Assembly: GCA_965204725.1 (NCBI GenBank) | Contig: OZ242005.1 | Coordinates: 4,864,001 to 4,928,000 of the forward strand | Length of the DNA: 64,000 bases | Reading direction: 5' to 3' | DNA from: Candidatus Latescibacterota bacterium | GTDB taxonomy: Bacteria; Latescibacterota; UBA2968; UBA8231 | In this document: one piece after another, positions 6,794 to 36,728 of the stretch | Layout: every line of letters begins with the position of its first letter | Position numbering within the stretch: position 1 is the first letter of the stretch | Made by a program: the position numbers and the translations under genes | Notes under the pieces: generated by a model | Databases searched by the model: none | Seen by the model: only the letters and a program-made list of their open reading frames with translations | What the model was told of the DNA's origin: nothing

Positions 6794-9700
6794 ATGAACC
6801 ATAAGCAGGTATTTGATCACATCCTCGGGCGGCACTACACGAACTTCGACGGGCTGGCCGGGATGCACGTGGAAGACATCTACCAAGACCGCCGCGGCCT
6901 GCTCTGGATCGCCACGGCCGACGGCGGCGTGGGCCGGTTCGACGGAGCGAATTTCGACATCTTTAGCCTCTCGAGAGGGGTTCCCCATATCACGGTAATG
7001 ACGATTGCTGAGGACCCAGACGGGCGAATGCTCTTCGGCACTCTCGGCGGCGGGCTAGCCGTATATGACGGGCAGGGGTTTCAGGTGCATACCACCGAGC
7101 ACGGGCTGCCGTCCAATGAGATCATGAGCCTGCAACCCCAAGCCGATGGCTCAATGCGGATGCTGACCGGCGCGGGGATAGGCCGGTTCGTCGATGGCCA
7201 GTGCGTAGAGTGCGTGACAGAAATTGCGGGGCAGCCGCTAGGCCCGGTGTACGACATGGCGACCGACGCGGCCGGTACGACGTGGTTGGCGACGCGGGAG
7301 CGCGGGGTTCTCAGCCTAGAGGGCCAGCCCCTGAGTGGGGACTTAGGCACGGGAAGCGGCGCGATGCAGTGGCCGTGGAAATTCGCCCAAGGCCCCTCCG
7401 GCCCTCTGTGGATCGCCTTTCGCTACACCGGTCGCAAACCCATTATCGGCTGCTATGATCCAGCGAGCAACCAGCTCGAACTCGTCGAGGTGGATGACCC
7501 AGCCGAGGAAGCCGAGATCGTCTGGCACGGTACGCGGCACGTGCGCGTCGATGATAGAGGCTTGCTGTGGATGACCTGCCGGGGCGTCTTGGTGTACGAC
7601 GGACGGGCTTGGCATCCATTCGCCACCGAGTTGCCGGATAGCCATTTTTCGGCGACGCGACTGACGTATGAAGACCGCGAGGGGAACATCTGGTTGGGGC
7701 TGTGGGGCGGCGGGCTGGTTTTTTGCGATCCGGTCAGCGTCCAGCTATACACCCAAGCCGATGGCCTGCCCGACAGCGAGGTCCAGTGTCTGAGCGAAGA
7801 CCGCGAAGGTCGGCTGTGGATCGGTACGATGGGGGGCTTGGCCTGCCGCCAAGACGACCGGATTCGCCCGGTAGATCCAAGGCGGGAGGTCTCAACGCTG
7901 GTGATTGACCAACAGGGGCAAGTCTGGAGCACAGGACCTGAGGGAGACATATTCAAGGCGACGGGTGGAGAGGCCGAGGCGATTGAGGGGGCCGAGACGA
8001 CCCTCACGGAAGGAATCGCGGGGCTGTGGGAAGACCAAGCAGGACGCCTAAACGTCTGCACTTCCGAGGGGCGATTGGGGCGGATCGAACAAGGTCGCTT
8101 TACGCCACTTGCGGAGCGGTTTCCCCGCGGTTGCACGGTCGTGTTACAGGATGGAGCAGGGACCCTCTGGGTCGGCCTCAGTAGGAAAGAGTCCGCGCTA
8201 TGCTATTATGAGGATGGTCGTTTCCACACGCCGACGGTGGCCGGCGTGAAAGACATCGGGAGTGTGAGTGCTTTGTGCGAGCACCAAGGCGCACTCTGGA
8301 TCGGGACGGAAAACTATGGCCTGTTCGCCTTGGACTACGCTTCCGAGGAGATCCGCCGGTTTACGGTGGATCAGGGGGGGCTGTCGGTCAATGGGATCTC
8401 GGCTCTGATGAGCGATCCGCAAGGCGATCTGTGGATTGGGACCAGCGGTGGGGGCGTCCTGAAGTACGACGGCCGGACCTTCCATACCATTCGGCTGGGA
8501 CAGGGCGCGTTGGAAAACATCGTCGAGGCCATTGTGCGCGACAGCCGGGGCCGGCTGTGGTTTGGGACGCGCAGGGGTCTCATTGCGTATCGGCCCGGGG
8601 AGACGCCGCCGCGCATCCTAATCCGCCAAGTCGTGGCCGGCCGAACTTGGGACGACCCCCAAGCCGTGTCCTGCCCAGACAGCACCCCCGAGATTCAGTT
8701 TCACTTCCAAGGCATCAGTTTCAGGAGTGGGGCCGGGCAGATGCGCTACAGCCACCGGCTCGTCGGCCCCGGCCGGGCCGAAGAGTGGAGCGCGTTCACG
8801 CCCGCCAATAAGGCGACGTACCGAGACGTGCCGGCCGGCCAGTTCCACTTTGAGGTGCGGACCACCGATCGGGATGGCTTGCTATCGGACATCGCCCGCC
8901 TAGAGGTTCGAGTGACCCCCTCTCCCCAGCGGCACATAGAGCACATGCTGCGGGCCTCGCATCAGGGTTTTATCAGCCAAAGTCCGGCCATGGCCGAGGT
9001 TCTCGAACGGGTCGACTCAATGGCCGAGGCGGACCTGCCGGTGCTGGTGCTGGGCGAGACCGGGGTTGGCAAGGGGGTGTTGGCGCGGCTTATCCACGAC
9101 CTTAGTCCGCGCCGAGCGAAACCCTTTATAGCGGTCAATTCCGGGGGCTTGTCCACCGGGGTGATACACAGCGAACTGTTTGGCCACGAAAAGGGGTCCT
9201 TTACCGACGCGCATGCCCAAAGAATCGGCTATTTTGAACGGGCTGATGGCGGCACCTTGTTCCTCGACGAGATAGGCGATTTGTCCGTAGAGTCCCAACA
9301 GCTCTTGCTCCACATCTTAGAGGATAAGAACCTGATGCGCCTCGGCGGCGGAAAGCCGATCCCGATAGATGTGCGGATTGTTGCTGCGACCAACAAGGAC
9401 CTCGAAGAGGCCATTCAGGCGGGCGTGTTCCGGGATGATCTGCTCTATCGGCTGAGGACATTATCAGTATTAGTACCGCCGCTGCGGGAGCGTCGGGAGG
9501 ATATCCCGCTCTTGGCGGCGTATTTTGCGAACCAGTGTGCCCAAACCCTAAAGCGGCCGGTGCCGACCTTAAGCGACGAAGTACTCGCGCACTTGCAGGA
9601 ATATCCTTGGCCGGGGAATGTGCGCGAATTGGCGCATCTGATACAGCAGGCGGTGGTGCTGGGCAAAGGGGATGTCATGCGGATAGAGGATGTACCGCTG

Positions 9701-9949
9701 ATGGCGGCCCCACCTGTTGAACAAGGCTCCGACGAGGGCACTGACGATGACGCCAAAAAGTGGGGATTCTTCGACGAGGATGCTAGAAATGAAGCCGAAA
9801 AGCAGCGAATTCTGAAGGCTCTCCAAACCACGAACTGGCGGGTCTCTGGCCCGCGGGGGGCGGCTCAGTTGTTGGAGATAAGCCCGGAGAAGCTGCGCTA
9901 TCGCATGCGTAAGTACGGGTTGAAACGGCCCGGGAAGGCGTCGCAGTAA
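6794..9949 (+). CDS. Sigma54-dependent activator: N-terminal Reg_prop beta-propeller and Y_Y_Y-like Ig domain, AAA+ domain, Fis-type HTH
   Basis: Repeated DxxGxLWIGT motifs; Walker A GETGVGK, ELFGHEKGSFTDA (GAFTGA variant), Walker B LFLDEIG, FRDDLLYRL, WPGNVREL; C-terminal NWRVSGPRGAAQLL..LRYRMRKYG. Confidence 0.92.
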   Translation: MNHKQVFDHILGRHYTNFDGLAGMHVEDIYQDRRGLLWIATADGGVGRFDGANFDIFSLSRGVPHITVMTIAEDPDGRMLFGTLGGGLAVYDGQGFQVHTTEHGLPSNEIMSLQPQADGSMRMLTGAGIGRFVDGQCVECVTEIAGQPLGPVYDMATDAAGTTWLATRERGVLSLEGQPLSGDLGTGSGAMQWPWKFAQGPSGPLWIAFRYTGRKPIIGCYDPASNQLELVEVDDPAEEAEIVWHGTRHVRVDDRGLLWMTCRGVLVYDGRAWHPFATELPDSHFSATRLTYEDREGNIWLGLWGGGLVFCDPVSVQLYTQADGLPDSEVQCLSEDREGRLWIGTMGGLACRQDDRIRPVDPRREVSTLVIDQQGQVWSTGPEGDIFKATGGEAEAIEGAETTLTEGIAGLWEDQAGRLNVCTSEGRLGRIEQGRFTPLAERFPRGCTVVLQDGAGTLWVGLSRKESALCYYEDGRFHTPTVAGVKDIGSVSALCEHQGALWIGTENYGLFALDYASEEIRRFTVDQGGLSVNGISALMSDPQGDLWIGTSGGGVLKYDGRTFHTIRLGQGALENIVEAIVRDSRGRLWFGTRRGLIAYRPGETPPRILIRQVVAGRTWDDPQAVSCPDSTPEIQFHFQGISFRSGAGQMRYSHRLVGPGRAEEWSAFTPANKATYRDVPAGQFHFEVRTTDRDGLLSDIARLEVRVTPSPQRHIEHMLRASHQGFISQSPAMAEVLERVDSMAEADLPVLVLGETGVGKGVLARLIHDLSPRRAKPFIAVNSGGLSTGVIHSELFGHEKGSFTDAHAQRIGYFERADGGTLFLDEIGDLSVESQQLLLHILEDKNLMRLGGGKPIPIDVRIVAATNKDLEEAIQAGVFRDDLLYRLRTLSVLVPPLRERREDIPLLAAYFANQCAQTLKRPVPTLSDEVLAHLQEYPWPGNVRELAHLIQQAVVLGKGDVMRIEDVPLMAAPPVEQGSDEGTDDDAKKWGFFDEDARNEAEKQRILKALQTTNWRVSGPRGAAQLLEISPEKLRYRMRKYGLKRPGKASQ

Positions 9950-9951
9950 GG

Positions 9952-10067: not shown

Positions 10068-10140
10068 TGTAAAAAGTTGTGCAAAAGTTGTGCAAAATCT
10101 GTTCACTTGCACAAGTTTTGCACAAGTTTTGCACAAAAAA
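10068..10140. promoter_or_regulatory. Putative enhancer (UAS) array for the sigma54 activator, copy 1
   Basis: AAAGTTGTGCA x2, then TGCACAAGTTT x2 plus TGCACAAAA; 11-bp period, near-inverted halves; about 130-200 bp upstream of a -24/-12 box; conserved at 23358-23425. Confidence 0.7.
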
Positions 10141-10266: not shown

Positions 10267-10282
10267 TGGCACGAAATTTGCA
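10267..10282 (+). promoter_or_regulatory. Sigma54 (-24/-12) promoter, copy 1
   Basis: TGGCAC-GAAAT-TTGCA, exact consensus spacing, next to a bEBP gene. Confidence 0.9.
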
Positions 10283-10327: not shown

Positions 10328-11473
10328 ATGGAAGCCCTGCTCAACGATTTTGGCCGCGTGTTTTTGCTGGAGTTGGTTATGGCCTGCGCCATTACCATCT
10401 GCGGTTGCTATACAACCTATACCGATATTCACTTCCGCCATATCCCCCATTGGGCTAGTTGGGGACTGCTGGCCGTAGGTTTAATAGGCCAAGGTCTATT
10501 TTGGATTTGGGGTGCGGTCGAACTGGACCAAGCAGGCATCGTCTTGTTGGTCGGTTTTGTTGTTGGTTACGTACTCTATATCTACGGATTTTGGGCACCC
10601 GGCGACGCCAAGTTGTTTTGGGCTTTTGTCTTGGTGCTGCCGCCGACGTTCTTCCCCTCCACTTCCCTCTCCTCCTTTGACGCGCCGATTTGGGCGCTCC
10701 TGCTCAACGCCTTAGTGCTCACCTGTTTTGTCTTGCTGGCGCTGTGGGCGGTTTTGCGTCGGGGGCGGTCGGCGGAAGTCGAGGGGGATTGGGGGCCATC
10801 GCAATGGCTGTATCTAGGCTTGGAGTTGGCCGGCCTGATAGGGCTCGTGCTGGGGTTTGGCTCCTTCCTGCTGGCCGAGACGATGACCTTTGTAGAGGTC
10901 GTGGTCGCCATCTTGGTGCTCTATCTGCTCGTTGACCACTTCGTCCCCCAGAGTTACCGGCTGACCTTGGCCCTGCCCGGTCTTATCCTCGGCGGCTACA
11001 CGGCCCTGCAATCGGGAGAATGGCTGATCTATCTGGTGCTGTGGGTCCTCGCTTGGGGGGTGTTCTCCCTCTATAGCATCATCCGGCATCTAGTCCCTCG
11101 GCACTTCGTACAGGCGATTCCTATTCAGGCGTTGCGCGCCGGCATGGTGCCGCAGGTAGCGATCTACGCGGCGGATACCGGCGGAGCGGCGGAATACCGT
11201 TGTGGCGCAGAGGTTGGGCCGGGGCAAGATGTGCTGTGTTATCCTGGCCGGCCGTTGACCAAGGGGCAGGTGCGGACGTTGCACGAAAAATCGGCGGGCG
11301 GTGCTTTCGCGCCGTTTGGCCATGAGTTGGCAGTGGAACTGGCCGTCCCTTTCGCGCCGATAATCGCCGTCGCTGGGGTGCTGACCCTAGTCTTGGGCGG
11401 CAGTCTAATCAGACCCCTGATACAGTTGTTCTCTCCGTGGCTGCCGTCGCTTCAGCAGTTGTTGGTGGGGTAA
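10328..11473 (+). CDS. A24 family aspartic membrane peptidase (prepilin/preflagellin peptidase, FlaK-like)
   Basis: TDIHFRHIPHW (first Asp), APGDAKL (GxD-xK), multiple TMs, FlaK-like IPIQALRAGMVP segment and C-terminal VPFAPII. Confidence 0.8.
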   Translation: MEALLNDFGRVFLLELVMACAITICGCYTTYTDIHFRHIPHWASWGLLAVGLIGQGLFWIWGAVELDQAGIVLLVGFVVGYVLYIYGFWAPGDAKLFWAFVLVLPPTFFPSTSLSSFDAPIWALLLNALVLTCFVLLALWAVLRRGRSAEVEGDWGPSQWLYLGLELAGLIGLVLGFGSFLLAETMTFVEVVVAILVLYLLVDHFVPQSYRLTLALPGLILGGYTALQSGEWLIYLVLWVLAWGVFSLYSIIRHLVPRHFVQAIPIQALRAGMVPQVAIYAADTGGAAEYRCGAEVGPGQDVLCYPGRPLTKGQVRTLHEKSAGGAFAPFGHELAVELAVPFAPIIAVAGVLTLVLGGSLIRPLIQLFSPWLPSLQQLLVG

Positions 11474-11475
11474 TC

Positions 11476-12093
11476 ATGAACCGAGATAGAAAAGACCCTG
11501 TAACACTGGCCTTTGGCGTCCTGTTGGTCGCCTTGCTGCCAACCTTTTTCCTGTTGGTGAGCCACTACCCGTCGTTAGAGGAGCGCGTGCAACAGTTGAA
11601 GCCTAAGCCCTTGGTGCCCGCGCCTTCACTGGAGGATCTGTTGGCGCAAGTCAGCCAAGCCGTATCCGACAGTACGCTCCAACTCCAACAGGTATGGGCT
11701 GCCGAGCCGGAACCGACTTCTGGCCTAGTGGCCGACTACAAGGTCGTGCGCGGCGGCCTAGCGGTCTATCGGCTGGTTCTATTCCGCCACGACATCGCCT
11801 GTAGCGTGTGCCGGGACGTGTTGGCCGCCGCTCTGTACGATGGCGACTCACTGGTGCAGATCTTTCTGCTCGACGATTGGGAGGTGCGCGGCGAGCGGGT
11901 TGATACCGCACAGTTTTTGCGCCAATTCGCGGGTCGCCCGCTGGCAACCGAACTGGCTCTTGAGGCCAATGTCGATGGGATCAGCGGGGCCACGTTTTCA
12001 ACCGGGGGCCTCGTCGAACAGCTCAACACGGCGGCGGCGTGGGTGCGGGCGCATCCGCTGGAGCCGCCGGCAAGCGAGGGAGAAAACCTGTGA
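11476..12093 (+). CDS. Membrane-anchored FMN-binding domain protein with CxxC
   Basis: N-terminal TM; VDGISGATFST flavinylation-type motif; HDIACSVCRD. Confidence 0.75.
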   Translation: MNRDRKDPVTLAFGVLLVALLPTFFLLVSHYPSLEERVQQLKPKPLVPAPSLEDLLAQVSQAVSDSTLQLQQVWAAEPEPTSGLVADYKVVRGGLAVYRLVLFRHDIACSVCRDVLAAALYDGDSLVQIFLLDDWEVRGERVDTAQFLRQFAGRPLATELALEANVDGISGATFSTGGLVEQLNTAAAWVRAHPLEPPASEGENL

Positions 12094-12629
12094 ACGCTCT
12101 CAGACCCAATCGCTGGGCTACGACCTTGATCGTGGCTACGGGCCTCCTGTTGGGAGCCTGTGTATTCCTAGCGGCCAAGATCGTCAATCCTCCGCCGATT
12201 GATCGGCTCGATGTGGCGTTTTGGGATTTGCTGGGTACGCAAGCGGCTATCCTCGAATTAGAGAGCCTGACGGGCACAGACAAGGTTTCCAACGCGCAGT
12301 TTGCGGGCGAGCCCTATCTGCTCATTTTCGCCGACCCGACTTGCAGTGCCTGCGAGGCCATTTATCCCCACTTGCTGCGCGCCTCGCAAGTGCAGGGCGT
12401 GAATGTCCTGTTCATTGCCTCGGGCGACCGGCAGGCGATGCAAGACAAAGTGGAGGAACACAGTTTTGCATTCCCGGTCGCCTTTGATTCCCTGTTGACG
12501 GCCAATAAGCCCTTTGAGGTGGGTGCTTTTCCCGCCTCTGTACTGGTGGATGCCGAAGGCAACATTGCCAAAGCCGCTACCGGCGATCAGGGTGCTGTCG
12601 CCGTAATACGCTTGGCTGGTAGTTCCTGA
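12090..12629 (+). CDS. Membrane-anchored thioredoxin-fold protein (TlpA/AhpC-TSA/MauD-like)
   Basis: GTG start overlapping the upstream TGA; N-terminal TM; FADPTCSAC; FPVAFD; GAFPASVLVDAEG. Confidence 0.8.
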   Translation: MNALRPNRWATTLIVATGLLLGACVFLAAKIVNPPPIDRLDVAFWDLLGTQAAILELESLTGTDKVSNAQFAGEPYLLIFADPTCSACEAIYPHLLRASQVQGVNVLFIASGDRQAMQDKVEEHSFAFPVAFDSLLTANKPFEVGAFPASVLVDAEGNIAKAATGDQGAVAVIRLAGSS

Positions 12630-12644: not shown

Positions 12645-13349
12645 ATGTACGTTGTAACTCTCTTGCGTCGTCCGGTGGTGTGGACGGTGGTGGCCAGCGT
12701 CGCGGTCGTGGTCTTTTTGGCCTTGCGTCCCTCTTCGTCGGCCCTCTCGCCGGTGGTGTGGACCGAGCCCTCGGCTAATCCGCTGGCCGAGGTGCTGCGG
12801 CCGGGGGATACCGCGCCGGACTTCGCGCTGCCGGCGGTACAGGGCGGCACGGTCGCCTTGAGTGCGTTGCGGGGAAAGCCCGCTTTGCTGGCCTTTGTTA
12901 CGGCGGAGTGTCCGTATTGTCAGAAGCTATACAAGCAACTCGAAGCCTTTGAACTGAATGCGGACCAACAACTCGTATTCATCTGCCCAAGCGAGGAGGG
13001 TGCTCGGAAAATCAGCGAGACCTATTCCTTTACGTATCCGGTGTTGATCGACTCGGCTGGGGCGATTTCACAGGCGTACAAAACCCCTGGGGTGCCTGCG
13101 GTGTATCGGGTCGGCCCCGAGGGGAAGATTGTGGATTTGGCGGTGGGATGGCCGACGGCTTGGACGTTTGTTCGGGGTTTTGGCCGCCTCCAGCTTAGCG
13201 AAGGCTCTGAAGGTTATTCGTTTAATGGCTCAATCATCATGCTGGCCCAGAAAGGAGGTGCATCCCGTGCTCGTAGGTTTGATGCTCGTCAGCAACCACA
13301 ACGGTTTGCTGATCCTTTTTCCAATTACTCAAGGAGAATTGCGTTATGA
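12645..13349 (+). CDS. Membrane-anchored thioredoxin-fold protein (TlpA/ResA-like)
   Basis: GDTAPDFALP, LSALRGKPALLAF, CPYC, YPVLID, GVPAVY; the last ~45 aa look like read-through of intergenic DNA and the stop overlaps the next ATG. Confidence 0.82.
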   Translation: MYVVTLLRRPVVWTVVASVAVVVFLALRPSSSALSPVVWTEPSANPLAEVLRPGDTAPDFALPAVQGGTVALSALRGKPALLAFVTAECPYCQKLYKQLEAFELNADQQLVFICPSEEGARKISETYSFTYPVLIDSAGAISQAYKTPGVPAVYRVGPEGKIVDLAVGWPTAWTFVRGFGRLQLSEGSEGYSFNGSIIMLAQKGGASRARRFDARQQPQRFADPFSNYSRRIAL

Positions 13350-13687
13350 AATCTCTACTTTTGTTCTTGCAGGCGGTGCTGGTGCTGCCGCTGGTGGCTC
13401 CGCTGGTGGAGTTCGCCACGTCAACCAGCGGGCACGTTGAGCCGCGTGAGGGGTTGGCGCTGGGCTGGCTGGGCAGCGTGGTGGCGGGGCTGGCGGTGGT
13501 GTTCGGCACGGCCGACCAGACCCAGGCCGATTCCTGCTACGGAATCTCGGAGGGAAGCAAGGGATCGTACACAACGTCGGATCCATGCGAGTGGAGGGAC
13601 CATAAACCCTTCAGGTATTGGGTGAATTATTATCGCCACTACGAAGGGGGACCGGGCTGTGTCTATCTGTATTCTGTATGCGTATAG
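13346..13687 (+). CDS. Cys-rich peptide precursor A1 (leader plus 4-Cys core)
   Basis: AAGGAG RBS; leader ..SGHVEPREGLALGWLGSVVAGLAVVFGTADQTQA; core C-x16-C-x23-C-x6-C; five paralogs in the window. Confidence 0.85.
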   Translation: MKSLLLFLQAVLVLPLVAPLVEFATSTSGHVEPREGLALGWLGSVVAGLAVVFGTADQTQADSCYGISEGSKGSYTTSDPCEWRDHKPFRYWVNYYRHYEGGPGCVYLYSVCV

Positions 13688-16177: not shown

Positions 16178-16510
16178 ATGAAGTCTTTGCCTTTGTTCTT
16201 GCAGTCGGTGCTGATGCTGCCGCTGGTGGAGTTCGCCACGTCAACCAGCGGGCACGTCGAGCCGCGTGAGGGTTTGGCGCTGGGCTGGCTGGGCAGCGTG
16301 GTGGCGGGGCTGGCGGTGGTGTTCAGCACGGCCGACCAGACCCAGGCCGATTCCTGCTACGGAATCGCGGAGGAAAGCATTGGATATAACCAAACGGGTC
16401 TCCCATGTGCCTGGAAAGACGATGAACCCTCCAAGTATTGGAGGGATTATTATTATCACCATTCTGGGAAGCCGGGCTGTGTCTATCTGTATTCTGCATG
16501 CAGCGTATAG
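16178..16510 (+). CDS. Cys-rich peptide precursor A2
   Basis: GAGGAGG RBS; same leader as A1; divergent core with identical Cys spacing. Confidence 0.85.
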   Translation: MKSLPLFLQSVLMLPLVEFATSTSGHVEPREGLALGWLGSVVAGLAVVFSTADQTQADSCYGIAEESIGYNQTGLPCAWKDDEPSKYWRDYYYHHSGKPGCVYLYSACSV

Positions 16511-23572: not shown

Positions 23573-23600
23573 ATAGTATTTGTAGAGAGGCGTAACGGAT

Positions 23601-26454: not shown

Positions 26455-26508
26455 GAAGCGGACATGCTGGAGATGTGCGCCAACCCGAAAAGAGAAGGAC
26501 ATAAGACG

Positions 26509-28732: not shown

Positions 28733-31231
28733 ATGCTAGAGACATTGCGCCAACGTATATCGACTCGTTTGCAGAATCTGAGCGTCCGGCTGCAACGCGC
28801 CGGCACGGTCAAGGGTCTGCCGCGCCACGAGTGCCCCGTCTTGATTTTTTTCCACGGCTACAGCTTGGCCCACACCATCCGACCGCTGGTCGTGGGACGA
28901 GCCCTGCGAGGGCGCGGCTACCCCGTCGAATTCGCGGGAGTGGGGCCTCACACCGCTCGGATCGCCGCCGAAGGCTTTCGAGTGTACGAGGTAGAAACCA
29001 TGCCGCAAAGCCACCTAGACCGATACGCGGCCCGTGGCGACTACGGAGACTGCAATGCGGAGAGGATAGACCGCTGCGTACAAGCCGAACGCGCCCTCCT
29101 CCGGCGGCTCCGCCCTGCCCTCGCGCTGGCAGACCTGCGGCCCACCTTGTCGCTTACCGCCTCTCTTGAAGGAATAGATATAGCCCTGATAGAAGCGGCC
29201 TACAACCAACCGGACTATCCGTTTCCCATTCGCCTGCCCACGTCCTTTTCCTTGGGCACCGAGCCATTCGACGAATACGCTCGTAATCACATCTCGACCT
29301 TCAAGCCACACCACACCTTCTACTTGGTGGCCGATGTGCCCCAATTCCACCCACCGGGTGAACAGACCCCATCCTATTATTGCTATGTGGGGCCATTGAT
29401 CGAGTCCCCACCGCCTCGCCCTATCGCGGAACTGAGCGATTGGGACGATTCGTTGCCGCTAGTCTATTTCAACTGCGGCAGCACCGGGGGCCATCCTAGC
29501 TTTCTCGACGAGGTGCTGGGCCGCATGGCCCATAAACCCTACCGCGTCTTGGTGACCACCGCGGGTCGTTGGGCCGGACAGGGAGCGGCCCCCAATATCC
29601 GCGTCGCCGACTTCGTGCCCGCGGCTTGGGTGTTGGCACAGGCGACCCTCTTCGTGGGGGTAGGCGGCATTGGTTCCATCTACCACGCCTTGCGCCAAGG
29701 CGTACCCGTGGTCGGTGCGCCCGAGCACTTGGACCAAGAGTACCACCTCAACCGAGTGCGCGACCTCGGCTTGGGATTCAAGCTCAACTGGGACGAGTTT
29801 CTCCGGGCGACTCCCCTGTTGGAGGCCATCGACGATCTCCTGACCCGCCACCGCGAATTTGCCCCGCGTTGTCGGGCCTTTGCCGCCCACGTGGGGGAAT
29901 GGGACGGAGGCCAAGCCGCGGCCGATGCGATTGACGCCTTTTTTGTGGACCAGCGTTCTGCCCACCCAATAGAGGCGGCCTATCAGATGCCCGAGCCCGA
30001 ATTTATCCACTACCTCAACCTGAGCACCCCGGCCAACCTCGGCGTCGAGGAGATCCGCACCTTGCTCCACCGCAACCTGAGTCGCGGTTTGCCGCATATC
30101 CAACAGGGCAGCAAGATCGCCTTTGATCGGGCAAATTCTTGGAACTGGCTCTACGACCACGAACCTATGTTCTTTGAAAGCGATTATCGCGCCCTCGAAC
30201 AGAAACGCCGCGATTTTTTCTCTCCTGCGAATGGCCACGTCGCACTGCACCGAAATCGTCAACGCTATCGCCTCACCTATACCTATCGGCTCTACCCAGC
30301 GACCTTGCCGCCCGATGTACGTGCCCGGCTCTTTCTGCCCTATCCCATCCCTAGTCCACATCAAGGAGCTATCGAGTTGTGTGCTTGTGCGCCGGACGAT
30401 TTGCGAACTTGCTTTGCGCCGCAGGCCGGTTTTTTCTACGGCTATCCCGTCCGGGTGGAGGAGGCCGCTCCAGCCGCGGTGGATTTTTCTTACACCTGTG
30501 AGTTGACCGTGCAGGGGCGCATGGGGGCAACGGACCCGGCCCCGCTGTCGGCCAGTGAATACCGCCGCTACCGCGAAATCGATTCAAAGCTGGCGCAAGA
30601 AGCGGTCGTCCAAAACTTCTTTGCCGCATTGGACTTGGACGCGGTGGAAGACCCGTTGGAAAAGGCGCGTCGCATCTACGCCCAATTAGCCGCGGTCAAG
30701 CGCTTCAAAAAAACCAAAGAGCAATCGCAGGACTTGGCCTCTTGCATCCACGTGGTGTTGAACGACAGCGGCGGCCACTGCATAACCCTGTCCAATGCCT
30801 TTATCGCCCTTTGTCGGCTACAGGGAATCGCGGCGCGGGCGGTCACCGGAGCCCTCGCCGGCTACCCCACAGGCGAGGGTCGTTTTGAGATGGCGGCCTA
30901 TAACGAGATTCTCTTTGGGCACACGTGGGCGGAGATTTTCGCGCCGGGCCAAGGTTGGGTGCCGGTAGAATTTCACGGTATTGTCATCGGCCCACAGGCG
31001 GCCACCACGGACAACGTCGCCGACGAAGCCCTGCGCCGCCACATCGCCGAAGTCGGCGGTCGCTACGTCGATTTTTACTTTGGCCAGTTGGATTGCCACC
31101 GCGTGGTGTGCTCCAATTCAGTCAAGACCGTACCGCAACTGTTGGCTTGGCGCGAGCCTGCGTCCGGGTCGCCGTTCTACGGGCCGGAAGGCTTACAATA
31201 CGAGTGCCGACTCGTCTTAGAGTGCATTTGA
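28733..31231 (+). CDS. Fusion of a GT-B (GT1/MGT-like) glycosyltransferase and a transglutaminase-like domain
   Basis: GYSLAHTIRPL and FVPAAWVLAQATLFVGVGGIGSIYHALRQGVP..DQ; C-terminal GHCITLSNAFIALCRLQGIAAR and GHTWAEIFAPGQGWVPVE. Confidence 0.8.
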   Translation: MLETLRQRISTRLQNLSVRLQRAGTVKGLPRHECPVLIFFHGYSLAHTIRPLVVGRALRGRGYPVEFAGVGPHTARIAAEGFRVYEVETMPQSHLDRYAARGDYGDCNAERIDRCVQAERALLRRLRPALALADLRPTLSLTASLEGIDIALIEAAYNQPDYPFPIRLPTSFSLGTEPFDEYARNHISTFKPHHTFYLVADVPQFHPPGEQTPSYYCYVGPLIESPPPRPIAELSDWDDSLPLVYFNCGSTGGHPSFLDEVLGRMAHKPYRVLVTTAGRWAGQGAAPNIRVADFVPAAWVLAQATLFVGVGGIGSIYHALRQGVPVVGAPEHLDQEYHLNRVRDLGLGFKLNWDEFLRATPLLEAIDDLLTRHREFAPRCRAFAAHVGEWDGGQAAADAIDAFFVDQRSAHPIEAAYQMPEPEFIHYLNLSTPANLGVEEIRTLLHRNLSRGLPHIQQGSKIAFDRANSWNWLYDHEPMFFESDYRALEQKRRDFFSPANGHVALHRNRQRYRLTYTYRLYPATLPPDVRARLFLPYPIPSPHQGAIELCACAPDDLRTCFAPQAGFFYGYPVRVEEAAPAAVDFSYTCELTVQGRMGATDPAPLSASEYRRYREIDSKLAQEAVVQNFFAALDLDAVEDPLEKARRIYAQLAAVKRFKKTKEQSQDLASCIHVVLNDSGGHCITLSNAFIALCRLQGIAARAVTGALAGYPTGEGRFEMAAYNEILFGHTWAEIFAPGQGWVPVEFHGIVIGPQAATTDNVADEALRRHIAEVGGRYVDFYFGQLDCHRVVCSNSVKTVPQLLAWREPASGSPFYGPEGLQYECRLVLECI

Positions 31232-31232
31232 G

Positions 31233-32309
31233 ATGGATATTTCCGTGGTCATTGCTACGCACAACCAGCAGGAACGGCTGCGGCTGGTATTGGCCGGATT
31301 GCGCGGCCAGACTGCGCCGGCTACGCGCTTTGAAGTGGTGGTGGTAGAAGACGGTTGTAGCGACAAAACGGCCGAGGTGCTCAGCGAGATTGAGCACCAG
31401 ATGGACCTAACAATTGTTCGCCTGCGGCCCAACGAGGGACGTTGTATGGCTCGTAACCGGGGGGTGGAGGCCGCCGCCGGGGAATTCGTCGCCTTCTTGG
31501 ACGGGGACGCCCTGCCGCATCCCCAATGGCTCCAACGCCATGTCGAAGCACTCGAACAGGGCGGGCGGGAGTCCCTGTTGTGCGGTGCCGAATACAGTCT
31601 GCCCGATTTGGAGTACCTGCAAGACCCCCAACGGGGGACGCCGATGGAGGACAAGACCCCGAGCGTAGTGCGCGAGTACCTCCGCTCCCACCGACCGGAG
31701 TTGATCCTGACCGAGGACATGGTCCTCAAAGCCTTTGACCGCGTCGAAGCGCGCGCCGTGCTCGGGGGGTATCCCTTTCCCGAACTCGAGATACTGCAGG
31801 AACAGATCGCCGAGCTTTTTGTCCAGCATCCCGATTCCCCGATTGGTTGGCTGGGCTTTTTCCCGCACAACGGCGTGGTTTCTAAGGAGGCTTTTTTAGA
31901 GGTGGGTGGTTTTGATCCCGACATGGCCTTTAGCGAAGGGTGGGATTTGGCTTATCGGCTGCAACAGCATGGGAGTCGGCCTCGCTTTGTCCCCGAGGCC
32001 AAGACCTATCACCTCTATCACTACCACGACTTTTCCGACCCGCTCAAAGCGCGCGAAGAGACGCTCGCCCCCCAACGGGCCATGCAGTACATGGAGCGGA
32101 AATACGGGGATCCCAAGTTGCTGCTATTTCACTTCTGGTACGCCAGTATCTGGCCAGATCCCCTCCTGCCCGAAGAGACGTTGCTAAGAGACTTGGTAGA
32201 ATTTCACCATGCGTACGCGCACTGGCCCACTAGCCAACTGCGCGATCTGCGGATATTGTTGGATCATCACCCACTATGGGCAGAACCAAGCGGAGCGCAA
32301 ATCCCATGA
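31233..32309 (+). CDS. GT2 family glycosyltransferase
   Basis: ISVVIATHN, VVVVEDGCSD, ARNRG, AFLDGD (DxD), VGGFD..EGWDLAYRL. Confidence 0.9.
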   Translation: MDISVVIATHNQQERLRLVLAGLRGQTAPATRFEVVVVEDGCSDKTAEVLSEIEHQMDLTIVRLRPNEGRCMARNRGVEAAAGEFVAFLDGDALPHPQWLQRHVEALEQGGRESLLCGAEYSLPDLEYLQDPQRGTPMEDKTPSVVREYLRSHRPELILTEDMVLKAFDRVEARAVLGGYPFPELEILQEQIAELFVQHPDSPIGWLGFFPHNGVVSKEAFLEVGGFDPDMAFSEGWDLAYRLQQHGSRPRFVPEAKTYHLYHYHDFSDPLKAREETLAPQRAMQYMERKYGDPKLLLFHFWYASIWPDPLLPEETLLRDLVEFHHAYAHWPTSQLRDLRILLDHHPLWAEPSGAQIP

Positions 32310-34225
32310 ATCAGAAAGGTTATTTTAGAGTCATTTCCCCTGCGTCGGTGGTGAAACATGCGCTACGATCCAGTGGATTGGTCGCGTTTGTGGCTCTGTC
32401 GTTGCTGCATCCTTCGCATCTTAGAGCCTTCACTTGGGACTTTGCTCAAGAAGGCGATGCCCAAGGTTGGGTAGCTTGGGAAAGCGGGGCTTCGGGCGCA
32501 GTAATTAGAGTACCGCTGCATTCGGAAACAGCCGGCGGAGTATGGCGCGTCGCGCCCCGGGACTTTATGCCCGGTATCAGGCCGATAGTCGAATTGATCT
32601 CCCCACCGATTGGCCGCGATTCGGCCCTATTCAACCGAGTGCGCGTCCGCTTGCGCGTACTGCACACCCAGCCGCTTGAGAGTCAGATTACGCTTCTGTG
32701 GAAGAATCCCGCTAACAAGGGTCTCCGAGGATTCTTTATCAACGCGCAGCCAAGAACGGGGATTGATCATATTACCTTGCTCAAGGGCCAACGCCATACC
32801 TACACTGCGGATTGGCAGGAGGTGACGATCGATAGTGTAGTGTCCAAGACCTATGTAATAGAGGACAAGGTCTATCGACGCCTATGGGAGGGTGAATTGC
32901 TCGAAATACGCCTTCGCCTGCCCTTGTTCAACTACTCGAAGGACGTGGAGGGACCGGGGGAAGTCCCCGAGGCGGTAGAAATCGATTGGATCGAGTTGAC
33001 CCATGCGGAAGGGCCAGATTCAGAGGTCGCGCCGCCGAGGGGGGAAGAGCCGTACCCTGTCGGGACGCTCTTTGCTCTACCGATCTTTTACCCTTTAGAC
33101 CAGCATGGATTGGACGTAGGGCAGCGCGGCCGGCCCGTAGCCGAGTTGGGGGATCTGGATGGCGATGGCGACATGGACATGGCGGCAGTATGGAAAGACT
33201 GGCAGCCCAGCACGAACTCCGACAGGGCAGGTTGGCTGTGCGCGTTCAATGAAGATGGTCGCTTCTCCCCCAAGGTCCGCATTGAACCATTCCCTGAGAT
33301 CGCTCCCATACCTAGGCTGGCCGGTGCTGATTTGCTCGGCGACGAGCGCATGGAACTCATCGTGGGCTTTGGTCGTTCGCTTGACCTGTTGGAGCATTCA
33401 TCAGCCGGTTGGTCGGTGGCGCGGCATATAGCGGACGGGGCGATTCCCTTGGGTACAGGAGATGTCGATGGAGATGGAGACGAGGATATATGGCTGACCG
33501 AGTCCTACTCCAAGCTCTCGGCTCGTGCCGTCATTTTGCTCAATGATGGGGAGGGGCGGTTCGACGAACGAATGATTCTGGCTCCCGAATTGGCCGAGTT
33601 TGCGTGGTCGCCCATGCGTCTGATCTATCATATCCCGGGTGGCCGCAAGACCGGATTGCTTTGGGGTGCCCCCGATGTTGGCACTCCACACGACTACATG
33701 GCGACCTATCTGGACGACAATGGTGAAACCATCCAAGAGCACCTCCGAGTGGATGCGGCGGCGGATTTGATCTGCTATGCGGGCGATTTTGATCAGGACG
33801 GAGATACAGATATGGTCGCGGGTAGGGCCGTCACCGCTACGACGATAGGCTCTATGCCCACAGTACTCACCGGGCTGGATCTTTTAATTAATCAAGGTGA
33901 CGGCGTCTTGGACAAGGTTGCATGGTATGAAAGGGGATACGTGCAACAGGATGTGGTGTTTTCCGACCTCAATGAAGATGGGCTCTTGGACGCAGTGTTT
34001 GTCGATCGCGATTTCCGCCAGCCGGCACTCGTCGTCAACATGGGCAGAAAGAACGGCGTCCCCCTGCGGGAAGGCCACTATCCGCTGCAAGGGTTGGGCG
34101 GAACGGTCATAAGCGGCGATGTGGATGGAGATGGCGACCTAGACTTGGCCGTGCTAGAAAATGCCATGCGCGGGGGGGGCAGTGGTATATACATCCTGTC
34201 CAACCAGACAAGAACGGACGATTGA
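32306..34225 (+). CDS. Secreted FG-GAP/VCBS repeat protein F5 (divergent, no FlgD tail)
   Basis: ATG overlapping the upstream TGA; same FTWDF..GW N-domain and GDxDGDGD repeats; ends just after the last repeat. Confidence 0.85.
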   Translation: MNQKGYFRVISPASVVKHALRSSGLVAFVALSLLHPSHLRAFTWDFAQEGDAQGWVAWESGASGAVIRVPLHSETAGGVWRVAPRDFMPGIRPIVELISPPIGRDSALFNRVRVRLRVLHTQPLESQITLLWKNPANKGLRGFFINAQPRTGIDHITLLKGQRHTYTADWQEVTIDSVVSKTYVIEDKVYRRLWEGELLEIRLRLPLFNYSKDVEGPGEVPEAVEIDWIELTHAEGPDSEVAPPRGEEPYPVGTLFALPIFYPLDQHGLDVGQRGRPVAELGDLDGDGDMDMAAVWKDWQPSTNSDRAGWLCAFNEDGRFSPKVRIEPFPEIAPIPRLAGADLLGDERMELIVGFGRSLDLLEHSSAGWSVARHIADGAIPLGTGDVDGDGDEDIWLTESYSKLSARAVILLNDGEGRFDERMILAPELAEFAWSPMRLIYHIPGGRKTGLLWGAPDVGTPHDYMATYLDDNGETIQEHLRVDAAADLICYAGDFDQDGDTDMVAGRAVTATTIGSMPTVLTGLDLLINQGDGVLDKVAWYERGYVQQDVVFSDLNEDGLLDAVFVDRDFRQPALVVNMGRKNGVPLREGHYPLQGLGGTVISGDVDGDGDLDLAVLENAMRGGGSGIYILSNQTRTDD

Positions 34226-34302
34226 ATGGATAGCCCGGATAATAAAGAAAGAGGCATAAGACGATGAGACGACCCGAAGCTATCACTCTCTGGAGGTTCG
34301 TT

Positions 34303-36426
34303 ATGCGCGGCTTGCTCGTTGCGATTGGATTGGTGGTAGTTCCGCCTAAAGCCTTCGCTTTAACATGGGATTTTGACGACGGCACGACTTGGGGATGGAC
34401 TGCACAAGAGAGCCCTTTAGGCTCTGACCGTGGGACCACCACGGTGTACAGCGAAGTCGAAGACGGCGTCTGGCGCATTGCGCCAGTGCCGAACGGGCTA
34501 AAACCAGCCGTCCGCTTGCTCTCGCCGCTGATTGGGGAGGACTCTAACCTGTTCGACTGGGTCACCCTACGGCTACGCATCATCCATGATTACCCCACCG
34601 AGGGGAACTTCCTGATGACGTGGACCAATACCGAGTACAGACGCCTCAAGAAGGAAGCACCCCGCGAATCAATCAGGTTGGGGTTTTATACGGGCCATTC
34701 TCAACTTTACCCCACCGAATGGGAAAACATCACCATAGATATACGGGCTTTGGAAGCCGCGGCGGAAGCGGACCCAGGAGAAGAGATTACTTGGCAGGAC
34801 ACCCTCCTCCACTTCCAATTCGACCTAGACTTATTGCACCTAGACGACGTATATGTATATGACTTAAAACCGGCGGATCGTCCGGCCTTTGTCGAAGTAG
34901 ATTGGATTCAACTGACGGGGGCCGAAGAACTGCTGCTGGGCGAACTACAGCCCCGGGCGAGCACCGTGGAGGCCGGGTTGCCCGGGACGTTGTTCGCAGA
35001 ACCGCGTTTTTCGGCACTGGGTCAAGAACTCGCAGGCCACATCCTGTATGGTACTTTGGGCGACTTGGACGGCGATGGGGATGACGACTTGGTCGTGGGC
35101 TGGAAAGTGTGGACTACGGGCTGGACTATAGCGACCAGCGACGGCTTGGGGGGCTTGGCCTCCACCCAAGAGGTACTCCTCCCAAACGAGGTTTATCCGA
35201 GGATTGTGGGGGGCGATGTGGACGGTGATGGGCTCCTCGATCTGGCCCTTGATACCGGTCGAACCATCGAATTGTGGCTCAACCGAGGCGAGAATGAATT
35301 TGAAACCATCCTACAGCTATCCGGCGGCTATCTCCTTGGTCTAGCCGATGGCGATGGCGATGGCGATGTGGACCTGTTGGGGGTAGAGGATCTCGACGAC
35401 CGATGGTCTAACGTGACTATGTGGATCAATGACGGTGCGGCCGGGTTTGCCCACAGCGACCAGTTCGTCCTCGACACCCAAGCAGAGCTCGGGGCTTCCC
35501 TGCTGGCAGGACAACCGGAGGGCGAAGCCGTGCGCGTGTTGTGGAACCGACCCTGCTGGAAGCCGGTGGAGACTTGGCGGCTGACCCAGCCGTGGGCAGC
35601 GAGCCAGCCGCCCCCGCTGTTTTTTGAGACCGGGGAGGTCAATCCCTGCGATATGTACCTGCTGACCGATCTGGATGGGGATGGCGCGGTGGAGTTGATC
35701 GGGACGCCCGAACGGAATCTGTATTTAGGCTTTTCTGTGGGCAACACCTACCACGGTTTGGCCCTGTGGCGGGTAGATGCCTCGGGCGGCGTAGAACGCC
35801 ACACCCTACTCGGTCCGCAGGTGATGGTGCCGGATACGGAGGGGGTTATTGCCCACGATCTGACCGGCGATGGCCTTTTGGACTTGGCTGTGCTCGATCT
35901 CAACATAGAGACGGGTCCGGCGCTGATCGTCTTGGTCGGCCAGCGCGCTGGGCTGCCCGTTGTCGAAGGACGCTATCCCCTGCCGGGCATCGGTCGCAAG
36001 GTACTCGCGGGCGATGTCAACGGCGATGGGGCGACCGATCTGGTCGTGCTGGGGCGGAGTCAGCGCGGCGATGGCGAGGCTTCCGTCTTCCTCAACCAAG
36101 GCATTCCCGCCACCGCTATCGCCGCCGAGACGATGTCCATGCCGACGGGGTTTGTCCTTGGGGCGAATTATCCCAACCCGTTCAACCCGGCCACGACCAT
36201 TCCCGTGTCGGTGGCGGCGGGTGCGGGCGAGGTCGATTTAACCATCTACAATGTCTTGGGACAGCCGGTGCGTCGAGTGTGGAACGGTTCGTTGGCGGCG
36301 GGCGAACACCGGCTGGCTTGGGATGGCCAAGACGCACAGGGCCAACTCGTCGCTGCTGGAGTCTATTTGTATCGGTTGCAGGTCGGCGACCAGACGCGCA
36401 TTCGCAAGATGGTCAAAATCGAATAG
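34303..36426 (+). CDS. Secreted FG-GAP/VCBS repeat protein F4 with FlgD-type tail
   Basis: Paralog of F1-F3; start set by the GGAGG RBS and by homology. Confidence 0.88.
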   Translation: MRGLLVAIGLVVVPPKAFALTWDFDDGTTWGWTAQESPLGSDRGTTTVYSEVEDGVWRIAPVPNGLKPAVRLLSPLIGEDSNLFDWVTLRLRIIHDYPTEGNFLMTWTNTEYRRLKKEAPRESIRLGFYTGHSQLYPTEWENITIDIRALEAAAEADPGEEITWQDTLLHFQFDLDLLHLDDVYVYDLKPADRPAFVEVDWIQLTGAEELLLGELQPRASTVEAGLPGTLFAEPRFSALGQELAGHILYGTLGDLDGDGDDDLVVGWKVWTTGWTIATSDGLGGLASTQEVLLPNEVYPRIVGGDVDGDGLLDLALDTGRTIELWLNRGENEFETILQLSGGYLLGLADGDGDGDVDLLGVEDLDDRWSNVTMWINDGAAGFAHSDQFVLDTQAELGASLLAGQPEGEAVRVLWNRPCWKPVETWRLTQPWAASQPPPLFFETGEVNPCDMYLLTDLDGDGAVELIGTPERNLYLGFSVGNTYHGLALWRVDASGGVERHTLLGPQVMVPDTEGVIAHDLTGDGLLDLAVLDLNIETGPALIVLVGQRAGLPVVEGRYPLPGIGRKVLAGDVNGDGATDLVVLGRSQRGDGEASVFLNQGIPATAIAAETMSMPTGFVLGANYPNPFNPATTIPVSVAAGAGEVDLTIYNVLGQPVRRVWNGSLAAGEHRLAWDGQDAQGQLVAAGVYLYRLQVGDQTRIRKMVKIE

Positions 36427-36545
36427 GAAGCGGACATGCTGGAAAAATCGCGCCAACCCATAGCGGCTGACTGGCAGCGTTTCATGGAACGATTGAATGA
36501 AAGGACGAAGGGCCACCTTGAACCATTGACCGAAAGGATTTGGTT

Positions 36546-36728
36546 ATGCTTACGTTGACATTACCTGAAGCCGAAAAGCGACAAATTTTGGCGGCCCTCC
36601 AAGTCACCAACTGGCGGGTTTATGGACCGCGGGGAGCGGCTCAGTTGTTGGGTATAAGCCCGGAGAAGCTGCGGTATCGCATGCGCAAGTACGGACTGAA
36701 ACGACCCAAAGCGAAAGCTACCTCGTAA
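36546..36728 (+). CDS. Stand-alone Fis-type HTH protein, paralog of the activator C-terminus
   Basis: EAEKRQILAALQVTNWRVYGPRGAAQLLGISPEKLRYRMRKYGLKRP nearly matches the end of 6794-9949; AAAGGA RBS. Confidence 0.65.
   Translation: MLTLTLPEAEKRQILAALQVTNWRVYGPRGAAQLLGISPEKLRYRMRKYGLKRPKAKATS

Follow-up and report, generated by a model that had tools for sequence, protein, structure and literature searches.

An undescribed, putatively sigma54-controlled gene set of a Latescibacterota bacterium places hypervariable cysteine-rich precursors beside an orphan A24 peptidase and a candidate disulfide-forming redox set

What does a bacterium do with a pilin-type membrane peptidase when searches of its genome find neither pilins nor a pilus ATPase? 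This question is raised by a locus in a stretch of 64,000 nt (hereafter the window) on contig OZ242005.1 of the sponge-associated Candidatus Latescibacterota bacterium (assembly GCA_965204725.1; genome of 5.43 Mb, 94% complete). The original prediction described about 30 kb of co-oriented genes as a candidate system for secreted disulfide (glyco)peptides, and Pfam and NCBIfam scans recover all of the listed genes between positions 6764 and 36728 on the + strand, the strand of all locus features below. At the center of the locus stand the genes of an A24/GxGD aspartyl membrane peptidase, an FMN-binding-type protein with a CxxC motif (FMN-CxxC), two anchored thioredoxins (Trx1 and Trx2) and six cysteine-rich precursors; these are accompanied by a sigma54 activator, five FG-GAP proteins, two DUF4159 proteins, one TPR protein, one GT1-transglutaminase fusion (GT1-TG) and one GT2 glycosyltransferase. 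The gene set is conserved and so far undescribed. The reading towards which we lean, with little more than even confidence, is that hypervariable disulfide miniproteins, competent for export, are matured by the orphan A24 peptidase together with a relay of flavin and thioredoxins and reach the cell surface via type IX secretion either directly or together with FG-GAP partners.

The peptidase gene (10328..11473) encodes 381 aa, the proposed leader peptidase. Its predicted A24 identity holds at a borderline Pfam score, with 26.9 bits for PF01478 against a cut-off of 26.5 at the protein level and 30.3 bits in a six-frame genome search, and the protein is the sole PF01478 match in the genome. Most of its homologues carry a precomputed PF01478 assignment, and some are named 'prepilin peptidase' or 'CpaA' by their sources. 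The catalytic residues D33 and G92-D93-x-K95 are invariant among 30 homologues, down to 24% identity. The AlphaFold2 model of the peptidase, with a predicted local distance difference test score (pLDDT) of 75.9, gives only one match above Z 8 among 48,161 chains in VIA-align, namely the GxGD protease FlaK (3s0x_B; Z 9.9, root-mean-square deviation 2.9 Å over 113 residues; next match Z 6.2), at a value below the level considered safe for helical bundles. A profile of the family finds only a chance match (E 0.32) among the sequences of solved structures. No T2SSE-family ATPase (PF00437) is detected in the genome by a search that is positive in 13 of 14 reference genomes, and searches for Flp_Fap pilins (PF04964) and the N_methyl motif (PF07963), likewise with positive controls, give no match in it. 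The only visible substrate candidates for the peptidase in the genome are the adjacent precursors. Since the genome shows no pilins, pilus ATPase, DsbB or VKOR, the A24 peptidase is proposed to trim the precursor leader, and the flavin/thioredoxin set to make the disulfides.

The six predicted leader/core precursor genes, with seven cores in total, are all present. Precursor 1 (13346..13687; 113 aa), preceded by a strong Shine-Dalgarno sequence 8 nt upstream, consists of a leader in codons 1-61 (13346-13528) and a 4-Cys core (13529-13684), and the protein of precursor 5 (23765..24106; 113 aa) is identical to it. Precursor 2 (16178..16510; 110 aa) also has a 4-Cys core. The longer precursors 3 (20298..20978; 226 aa) and 4 (22491..23168; 225 aa) add a type IX sorting domain to leader and core; in precursor 6 (27881..28723; 280 aa), which has such a domain as well, the leader is shortened and two cores stand in tandem. 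The common architecture is a near-invariant leader of ~60 aa followed by a hypervariable core with 4-12 cysteines: among 118 close members (6903 pairs), pairwise identity averages 0.83 over the leader but drops to 0.39 over the core, and 110 of the 118 proteins have 4, 6 or 8 core cysteines.

Inspection of 70 diverse representatives, 65 of which were anchored, reveals a constant order of elements in the leader. An N-terminal piece of 10-24 residues with conserved Leu, Glu and Phe runs into S-x-S-G; a polar segment of about seven residues, in which Arg occupies +5, precedes G-L-x-L-G-W, an 18-residue hydrophobic stretch, Ala-x-Ala and the first Cys. Conservation in the leader logo, whose anchoring pattern itself fixes G at 0 and restricts positions -3 and -1, amounts to 57/64 for F(-6), 57/65 for S(-3), 59/65 for S(-1), 41/65 for R(+5), 58/65 for G(+7), 54/65 for L(+8) and 45/65 for W(+12). 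Judged from its residues, the leader has the general plan of a class III signal, in which a short N-terminal segment closes with an invariant Gly and a putative hydrophobic helix comes after it. The charged residue at +5 and the Gly-Leu spacing at +7/+8 are features that we take to parallel Flp prepilins. Because the leader contains a hydrophobic membrane/signal segment and a conserved Ala-x-Ala, the precursors are expected to be exported by the general pathway and not by a dedicated ATP-binding cassette (ABC) exporter. The absence of a double-Gly leader and of a C39 peptidase-ABC exporter, which the original prediction had pointed out, is borne out by Pfam for the 21 locus proteins scanned.

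In an AlphaFold2 prediction that used 56 sequences, the leader stays below pLDDT 50, whereas residues 62-113 reach pLDDT 78-96 and form a three-stranded sheet. The core is thus predicted to be a compact three-stranded beta miniprotein and not a linear peptide awaiting cytoplasmic tailoring. [quoted passage not shown] A fold search with the core model gives no usable match (best Z 3.0), a result that does not show the fold to be new. The family itself is large and without annotation. A profile of ten precursors recovers at least 345 clusters at 90% identity (8000 candidates scored), none with a Pfam domain; the precursor-family clusters among the 120 listed are all 'hypothetical' or unnamed, and a filter-free search of 1.84 billion representatives returns 84 clusters at 50% identity with E<=0.001. 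Neither NCBIfam (no credible match for 49 diverse precursors) nor Pfam (none for 45, even at E<=10) covers them. This agrees with the earlier suggestion that the system is undescribed, as there is no curated family for the precursors and no description of the system in the literature searched.

Leader and core also differ in their evolution. For pairs within a genome, the synonymous divergence (dS) is 0.02-0.35 in the leader and ranges from 0.11 to saturation in the core, with the core above the leader in every pair. Because leader dS is lower in all pairs, it is likely that the leader is homogenized at the DNA level or that cores are swapped behind it. The ratio of nonsynonymous to synonymous divergence (dN/dS) in the core is 0.9-1.9 among three close paralogues (11 genes, few sites). 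Contigs from four other runs, compared over 12600-14400, end or become divergent precisely where the leader meets the core; in the contigs of two runs, 13559-13652 is replaced by a diverged sequence of the same length, and 21 of 40 listed differences (177 in total; counted in contigs, not reads) fall in 13567-13650. The runs that contain this stretch belong to 8 studies and bear either codes or the labels sponge or marine metagenome. That cores turn over rapidly, in a cassette-like manner, suggests a role at the cell surface, either in recognition or in antagonism, with a host, a competitor or a phage as the other party.

Four further precursors are encoded outside the window, at C1:2247188-2247469(+), 1004811-1005077(-), 3149098-3149343(-) and 2177910-2178701(-). 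Three of them have a type-2 leader and are each followed by an FG-GAP gene with a C-terminal sorting domain (FG-GAP/CTD); two of these have a sigma54 consensus upstream, whereas no such site was detected for the third. In the fourth precursor, a sorting domain goes with a variant leader.

The redox genes directly follow the peptidase gene. The FMN-CxxC protein (11437..12093; likely true start at the ATG at 11476) is of membrane-anchored FMN-binding type, and both motifs named in the original prediction are present: in its family, an N-terminal anchor is combined with R-x-D-I-x-C-x-x-C-x-D and D-G-[IV]-[ST]-G-A-T motifs, both of them invariant (nine homologues), and the SGAT of the locus protein conforms to the flavinylation motif [S/T]GA[S/T] as defined in the accessible text of Meheust et al. 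2021 (PMC8238504). The FMN_bind family (PF04205) scores 18.9 bits, under its cut-off of 22, and an Atlas search with the protein yields only generic FMN_bind clusters with scores < 0.9. ApbE is encoded elsewhere in the genome (273.6 bits). The two predicted anchored thioredoxins match the AhpC/Redoxin families: Trx1 (12039..12629) is ResA/MauD-like with a CSAC motif, and Trx2 (12645..13349) is ResA-like with a CPYC motif, its stop codon overlapping the start of the first precursor (ATGA). A search of the genome, which is 94% complete and encodes many Cys-rich secreted proteins, gives no DsbB and no VKOR; it was directed at these two, and DsbA and DsbD/CcdA were not searched. Since the motifs are invariant, ApbE is present and DsbB/VKOR are not found, the FMN-CxxC/thioredoxin set of the locus is a candidate dedicated source of disulfides.

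Regulation can be read from the upstream region. The first gene (6764..9949) encodes an activator of 1061 aa with the domains of a sigma54 enhancer-binding protein, comprising N-terminal Reg_prop propellers with a Y_Y_Y sensor, an AAA+ sigma54-interaction domain (Sigma54_activat, 205.9 bits in Pfam, with sigma54 activator families matching in NCBIfam as well; the GAFTGA loop has the variant GSFTDA) and a Fis-type helix-turn-helix (HTH_8). The two sigma54 promoters of the original prediction are exact matches to TGGCAC-N5-TTGC: promoter 1 (-24/-12 type; 10267..10281) lies 47 nt upstream of the A24 start, and promoter 2 occupies 23557..23571. Activator-type repeats, inverted and direct copies of TGCACAA-N-TTT-N-GCAC (10068..10140), are located about 130-200 bp upstream of promoter 1, and in the 5.43-Mb genome this repeat unit is confined to the two promoters of the window. 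With one mismatch allowed, the window contains 14 matches to this consensus versus 5.1 expected, a number reached in 0 of 100 shuffles, and RpoN is encoded in the genome (199.9 bits). Promoters, RpoN and activator domain together identify the locus, at the level of sequence, as a sigma54-dependent operon with a dedicated enhancer-binding protein. A paralogue 52% identical to the activator heads another FG-GAP locus of the genome. The activator has no signal peptide or membrane segment, and its Reg_prop/Y_Y_Y sensor is of a type that is periplasmic in Bacteroides hybrid two-component systems. An open reading frame (ORF) at 9967-10227 (86 aa) was considered as a gene and rejected, because it is without a family and sits over the activator repeats.

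The length of the locus is the product of segmental duplication, the 30 kb being an expanded form of an operon that is compact in related genomes. Promoter 2 and its repeats were copied from promoter 1, with 87% of columns identical. The copy lies in a duplicated promoter region (23357..23620) in which the repeats, the promoter and the first 21 nt of the A24 gene are fused to the last ~135 nt of the Trx2 gene. A DUF4159 gene remnant of about 30 codons (23201..23290; 73%) is a further duplication scar. The locus had been described as bracketed by the activator and a stand-alone copy of its HTH. Both are present, but the latter, a 62-aa HTH_8 ORF (36540..36728) that is 87% identical to activator residues 1010-1056, is probably a duplication remnant and not a designed bracket. 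Another in-frame remnant of the activator HTH (20 aa, 85%) forms a scar between duplicated blocks at 22334-22393.

Comparison with related genomes supports the predicted existence of one conserved, dedicated system, as the same genus has a second version, 35-55% identical, and further families of the class retain a reduced core. A search with the A24 protein, using one genome per species, finds four loci in metagenome-assembled genomes labelled Latescibacterota or mislabelled Gemmatimonadota/Rhodothermales. The unduplicated operon is seen in L005 and L006 and contains the activator, a sigma54 site, A24, FMN-CxxC, Trx1, Trx2, one precursor of 115/116 aa and an FG-GAP gene, continuing in L006 with GT1-TG and GT2; the leaders of these precursors are the same as those of the window, whereas the cores, with 6 and 8 cysteines, are very different. 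The second version (L015, L016/17, L027) has the order activator, [precursor-FG-GAP]n, FMN-CxxC, A24, Trx1, Trx2, TPR, GT1-TG, GT2, DUF4159. Distant versions in two other families of the class (L025, L026) keep FMN-CxxC, Trx, Trx, A24 and Cys-rich precursors, and a MacB/FtsX permease replaces FG-GAP; one of them also has a beta-propeller weakly similar to the NHL propeller. Overall, A24, FMN-CxxC, one or two thioredoxins and small precursors are adjacent in three diverged clades of one Latescibacterota class, at 25-45% identity. A quick tree of 78 A24 homologues gives support by the Shimodaira-Hasegawa-like approximate likelihood ratio test of 100 for the type-1 and type-2 clades and of 96-100 for the distant clade. 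In one of the distant loci (L025:8114-9430, + strand; genome G089), a Mutator-family transposase lies between the thioredoxin genes and the A24 gene.

At the level of the phylum, precursors occur in 27 of 168 genomes, in one family only (26/75 there and 0/93 elsewhere in the full tally), with up to 20 copies per genome, and A24 homologues occur in 32 of 168. In the co-occurrence check attached to the original prediction, 25 of the 27 precursor genomes have the A24 gene, versus 7 of the 141 genomes without precursors. The two precursor genomes lacking A24 are one 75%-complete assembly and one genome with a single weak match. Two of the seven A24 genomes without a precursor-profile match were inspected (G089, G052), and both have diverged, leader-bearing ORFs with 8-10 cysteines beside A24. 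FMN-CxxC is found in 28 genomes, 25 of which have A24. The linkage is also local: near-full or full-length type-1 A24 genes (one copy stop-interrupted) have a precursor ~1.9 kb downstream in 9/9 genomes, and type-2 A24 genes have one within 10 kb in 10/12, the two exceptions being fragmented assemblies.

The same genome contains a second, diverged system (C1:362001-380000, locus L013) with a short sigma54 activator, FMN-CxxC, a thioredoxin, a MacB/FtsX permease, GT1-TG and GT2. It also encodes a peptide of 66-69 aa with 8 cysteines and an ordinary signal peptide, a six-bladed propeller (NHL/DUF5128) and a TPR protein 82% identical to that of the window, and it has no A24 gene.

How the products may leave the cell is indicated by their C-termini, as a type IX sorting domain closes the three long precursors (3, 4 and 6) and all but one of the five FG-GAP proteins. 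With TIGR04183, precursor 6 reaches 36.8 bits and the 712-aa FG-GAP protein 35 bits (cut-off 23; two proteins tested), and Pfam assigns FlgD_ig/Por_Secre_tail domains to all three of these precursors as well as to both FG-GAP/CTD proteins scanned, the two unscanned ones being 90-93% identical. Precursors 1, 2 and 5 and the 649-aa FG-GAP protein lack the domain. Type IX components are encoded in the genome, with SprA at 485 bits (612 with the neighboring frame) and PorU at 623 bits, both over their cut-offs; these were the two components searched. The genome holds at least 50 sorting-domain matches and about 20 FG-GAP/CTD paralogues. The loci examined contain 17 precursors that lack a sorting domain; an FG-GAP/CTD gene comes immediately after 15 of them and, for the other two, after one intervening small ORF. 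Of the four tail-bearing precursors in the genome, three stand alone. Because of this complementary arrangement, the data fit a rule in which the sorting tail would be supplied either in cis or by the neighboring FG-GAP gene. In L006, a strongly A+T-rich ORF of 150 aa without a family, possibly an insertion, lies between precursor and FG-GAP gene (13739-14191, + strand).

Taken together, these findings suggest the following sequence of events. The adjacent activator would turn on the two sigma54 promoters via its private upstream repeats, and the precursor would then insert into the inner membrane by the hydrophobic segment of its leader. On the cytoplasmic side, the A24/GxGD peptidase would cut after the invariant Gly of S-x-S-G and remove the N-terminal piece of 10-24 residues, in the manner of CpaA/TadV peptidases acting on Flp prepilins. 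On the outer side, the two anchored thioredoxins could form or shuffle the 2-4 or more core disulfides and be recycled by the flavinylated FMN-CxxC protein, which would stand in for the missing DsbB/VKOR. A cut at the conserved Ala-x-Ala would release the folded beta-sheet core of ~50 aa. Cores with a sorting domain are expected to exit by the type IX system, and those without one would probably travel or act with the FG-GAP propeller encoded directly downstream, which has such a domain; in the distant relatives, a MacB/FtsX permease may take the place of FG-GAP. A bolder form of this reading, put forward tentatively and rather doubtful as a whole, is that a pilin-type GxGD peptidase without filament machinery was recruited in sponge-associated Latescibacterota as leader peptidase of conotoxin-like, cassette-diversifying miniproteins and, at the same time, that ApbE-flavinylated FMN-CxxC and the thioredoxins constitute a new flavin-based disulfide system, which would replace DsbB/VKOR and be a bacterial functional analogue of the Ero1/Erv oxidases. 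The miniproteins would be type IX-displayed, directly or on integrin-like propellers, for strain-specific recognition of the sponge host, competitors or phages.

Several points weigh against the maturation pathway just outlined. The A24 assignment is borderline in Pfam, the FlaK match falls short of a safe level, and Foldseek with the A24 model finds no match at E<=0.001. The leader is not that of a canonical prepilin, in that the Gly is followed by seven polar residues and position +5 holds Arg in place of Glu, and 45 precursors give no PF04964 match at E<=10, which places them outside the Flp prepilin family; part of the sharpness of its logo stems from the anchoring. Because of the conserved Ala-x-Ala, an ordinary signal peptidase alone could process the precursors, and the need for two cuts is not evident. 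The genome has only the type-1 A24 gene, yet three of the four precursors outside the window have a type-2 leader and one a variant leader; their processing by the type-1 enzyme must therefore be assumed. On the redox side, FMN_bind stays under its cut-off, no membrane electron acceptor was identified for the flavoprotein, and one clade (g18) has A24 and a thioredoxin without FMN-CxxC. In addition, the related genomes counted above are non-independent samples, and every mechanistic step is inferred.

Other explanations account for parts of the same evidence. A glycocin-like RiPP pathway, in which GT2 and/or GT1-TG would glycosylate the precursor in the cytoplasm under leader guidance before the leader is removed and a disulfide-bonded (glyco)peptide is released, would explain the conserved leader and variable core. 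It is also in line with the presence of GT1-TG, GT2 and TPR inside both operon versions of the genus, with the Cys-protease fold of the transglutaminase core, which could cut leaders, and with sublancin-type clusters, where GT2 and thioredoxin-type genes share an operon. The distribution of the glycosyltransferases, however, makes the '(glyco)' element the weakest part of the original prediction: among the 27 precursor genomes, 20 have GT1-TG and 7 do not, the gene also occurs in 13 of the 141 precursor-free genomes but in none of the distant versions, and three of the five GT1-TG/GT2 pairs of this genome lie away from any precursor. The module is thus, on the evidence of gene neighborhoods, separable from the precursors and may serve several substrates, and the GT1-TG/GT2/TPR and DUF4159 genes appear as accessory. 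Since, furthermore, the cores are predicted as folded domains, the leaders have an export segment, three precursors are type IX cargo, and Pfam detects neither a double-Gly leader, a C39 peptidase-ABC exporter nor a RiPP recognition element at the locus, we consider the RiPP explanation improbable. The same low probability is given to the view that the cores are bacteriocin-like toxins and the FG-GAP propellers their cognate immunity or decoy proteins, not carriers, in polymorphic-toxin-like cassettes. Tandem peptide-propeller modules, up to about 10 per array, hypervariable cores with dN/dS near or above 1 in close paralogues, and the MacB/FtsX permease of the distant versions, of a type often tied to peptide export or immunity, would all suit such an arrangement, as would the FG-GAP proteins being the second fastest-evolving part (61-66% identical between genomes whose A24 genes are 82-91% identical). 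Yet FG-GAP copies of the window are 90-93% identical where the peptides differ by 26% overall and by more in the core, the propeller has no sharply hypervariable region, and immunity proteins are usually small and not secreted cargo.

An ordinary expansion of type IX surface proteins, with the A24, thioredoxin and FMN genes as unrelated neighbors serving, for example, cytochrome or general envelope redox functions, could be imagined from the abundance of FG-GAP/CTD paralogues and sorting-domain proteins and from the other pathways that ResA/MauD-like thioredoxins serve elsewhere. It seems very unlikely, given that A24, FMN-CxxC, Trx and precursors stay adjacent across three clades despite differing accessory genes, that precursors and A24 co-occur at the genome level (25/27), and that the genome offers no other conceivable A24 substrate. 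Least probable of all, to the point of being hardly credible, is a reduced Flp/Tad-like filament with the precursors as its subunits and A24 as a conventional prepilin peptidase. The CpaA/TadV/FlaK type of the enzyme, the names that sources give to its homologues and the short leader ending in Gly with a hydrophobic helix next would be expected in that case, but the genome has no T2SSE-family ATPase, Flp_Fap or N_methyl match, the helix is followed by a conserved Ala-x-Ala, type IX sorting domains are fused to some of the precursors, and the polar stretch after the Gly is unlike that of pilins.

The proposed A24-dependent maturation of miniproteins can be placed among known systems by what it shares with each. 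With Flp/Tad (type IVc filaments) it shares a non-methylating A24/GxGD peptidase with two catalytic Asp residues and, presumably, the signal motif itself (a short N-terminal piece with an invariant terminal Gly, a charged +5, Gly-Leu at +7/+8 and a hydrophobic helix). It differs in having no assembly ATPase, platform or pilin families, in the Arg at +5, the polar stretch and the second, Ala-x-Ala site, and in its C-terminal hypervariable disulfide domain, sometimes with a type IX tail. Cargo of type IX secretion with type A C-terminal sorting domains resembles the products in that four precursors of the genome and most FG-GAP proteins carry a TIGR04183-type tail and SprA and PorU are present; known cargo, in contrast, has ordinary signal peptides and no dedicated A24/flavin/thioredoxin genes, and here 6 of 10 precursors have no tail. 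Glycocin/sublancin-type clusters likewise bring together leader-bearing Cys-rich precursors, GT2 and thiol-disulfide oxidoreductases; the present locus, however, has no double-Gly leader or C39-ABC exporter, relies on export via a membrane/signal segment, and shows a separable GT module and predicted folded beta cores of ~50 aa. Prochlorosins and conotoxins also place a constant leader before many divergent Cys-containing cores encoded by multi-copy genes, but no lanthionine synthetase is found here and the leader would double as an export signal.

Three literature systems come close in single respects. In the Sulfolobus bindosome, as described in the accessible text of PMC3047682, non-filament secreted proteins with class III signal peptides are cut by an A24-family peptidase; that system is archaeal, needs the Bas assembly ATPase system and has large sugar-binding substrates, not hypervariable miniproteins. 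The route of Escherichia coli heat-stable enterotoxin II, which we take to run through Sec, periplasmic disulfide formation and MacAB-TolC (accessible text of PMC5985334), similarly folds a small Cys-rich peptide oxidatively in the periplasm and then passes it out, and the likeness extends to the MacB/FtsX permease in the distant versions of the present system; it uses the general DsbA/DsbB, has no dedicated peptidase and serves a single toxin and not a diversifying family. The ApbE-flavinylated electron-transfer clusters of Meheust et al. 2021 (PMC8238504) place flavinylated extracytoplasmic proteins beside thioredoxin-like proteins. They use DUF3570/DsbD/DUF4266, and 'A24' does not occur in the accessible main text; here, by contrast, CxxC and the FMN-binding module are united in one protein that is tied to peptide precursors. 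The accessible text of PMC12993501 names only the antiSMASH classes RiPP-like, ranthipeptide, LAP and RRE, and contains none of the terms 'secretion system', 'FG-GAP' and 'bacteriocin'. The precursor families are absent from Pfam, NCBIfam and the source annotations, and DUF4159 occurs in the literature searched only in the Pfam database paper.

If the proposed pathway is true, it would represent a new bacterial route of peptide maturation, with a pilin-type intramembrane peptidase working outside any filament system. The redox set would then be a candidate for a third kind of bacterial disulfide machinery, flavin-based and found in an organism without detected DsbB/VKOR. The precursors would constitute a large unannotated reservoir of fast-evolving disulfide scaffolds of ~50 residues, predicted to be stably folded, in sponge symbionts; sponges are a habitat that has yielded many disulfide-rich peptides of unknown origin. 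Strain-specific surface recognition by uncultured sponge symbionts would thereby become a testable question, and all parts of the system are small enough for heterologous reconstitution.

The remaining genes of the locus comprise the FG-GAP proteins and the accessory functions, all of which had been listed in the original prediction. Two FG-GAP propeller proteins with the sorting domain, of 712 aa (13896..16034) and 709 aa (16722..18851), are 93% identical to each other. A third of 711 aa follows at 24319..26454 and a fourth of 720 aa, 78% identical to the others, at 34264..36426 (likely start 34303). The fifth, diverged FG-GAP protein of 649 aa (32276..34225) is the one without a sorting domain. 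The FG-GAP N-terminal domain of ~215 aa carries no family assignment. DUF4159 protein a (18861..20243; 460 aa) has an N-terminal membrane segment and a Pro-rich linker, and DUF4159 protein b (26464..27822) has 452 aa. The TPR protein (21129..22334; 401 aa) is cytoplasmic and has an 82% paralogue in the second locus of the genome. GT1-TG (28733..31231; 832 aa) is a cytoplasmic fusion of an MGT/EryCIII-like GT1 with a transglutaminase core, forming the separable accessory module together with GT2 (31233..32309; 358 aa), which is always paired with it. The GT1-TG and GT2 pairs away from precursors are located at C1:2113155-2116399, 2143415-2146974 and 3453192-3456700, some of them beside other small secreted ORFs or a gene resembling an extracytoplasmic function sigma factor.

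The genes flanking the locus are ordinary metabolic genes. Two large proteins of the window deserve a short description. The first (36729-40001, + strand; 1090 aa) begins right at the stop codon of the HTH ORF and combines TPR repeats and a propeller of the DUF7133/glucose-sorbosone-dehydrogenase type with a signal-like N-terminus; a paralogue of its C-terminal half (82%) is located at C1:4229142-4230665. The second (54083-58498, - strand; 1471 aa) carries He_PIG Ig-like repeats and a type IX sorting domain, as appropriate for a secreted surface protein, and is unrelated to the locus.

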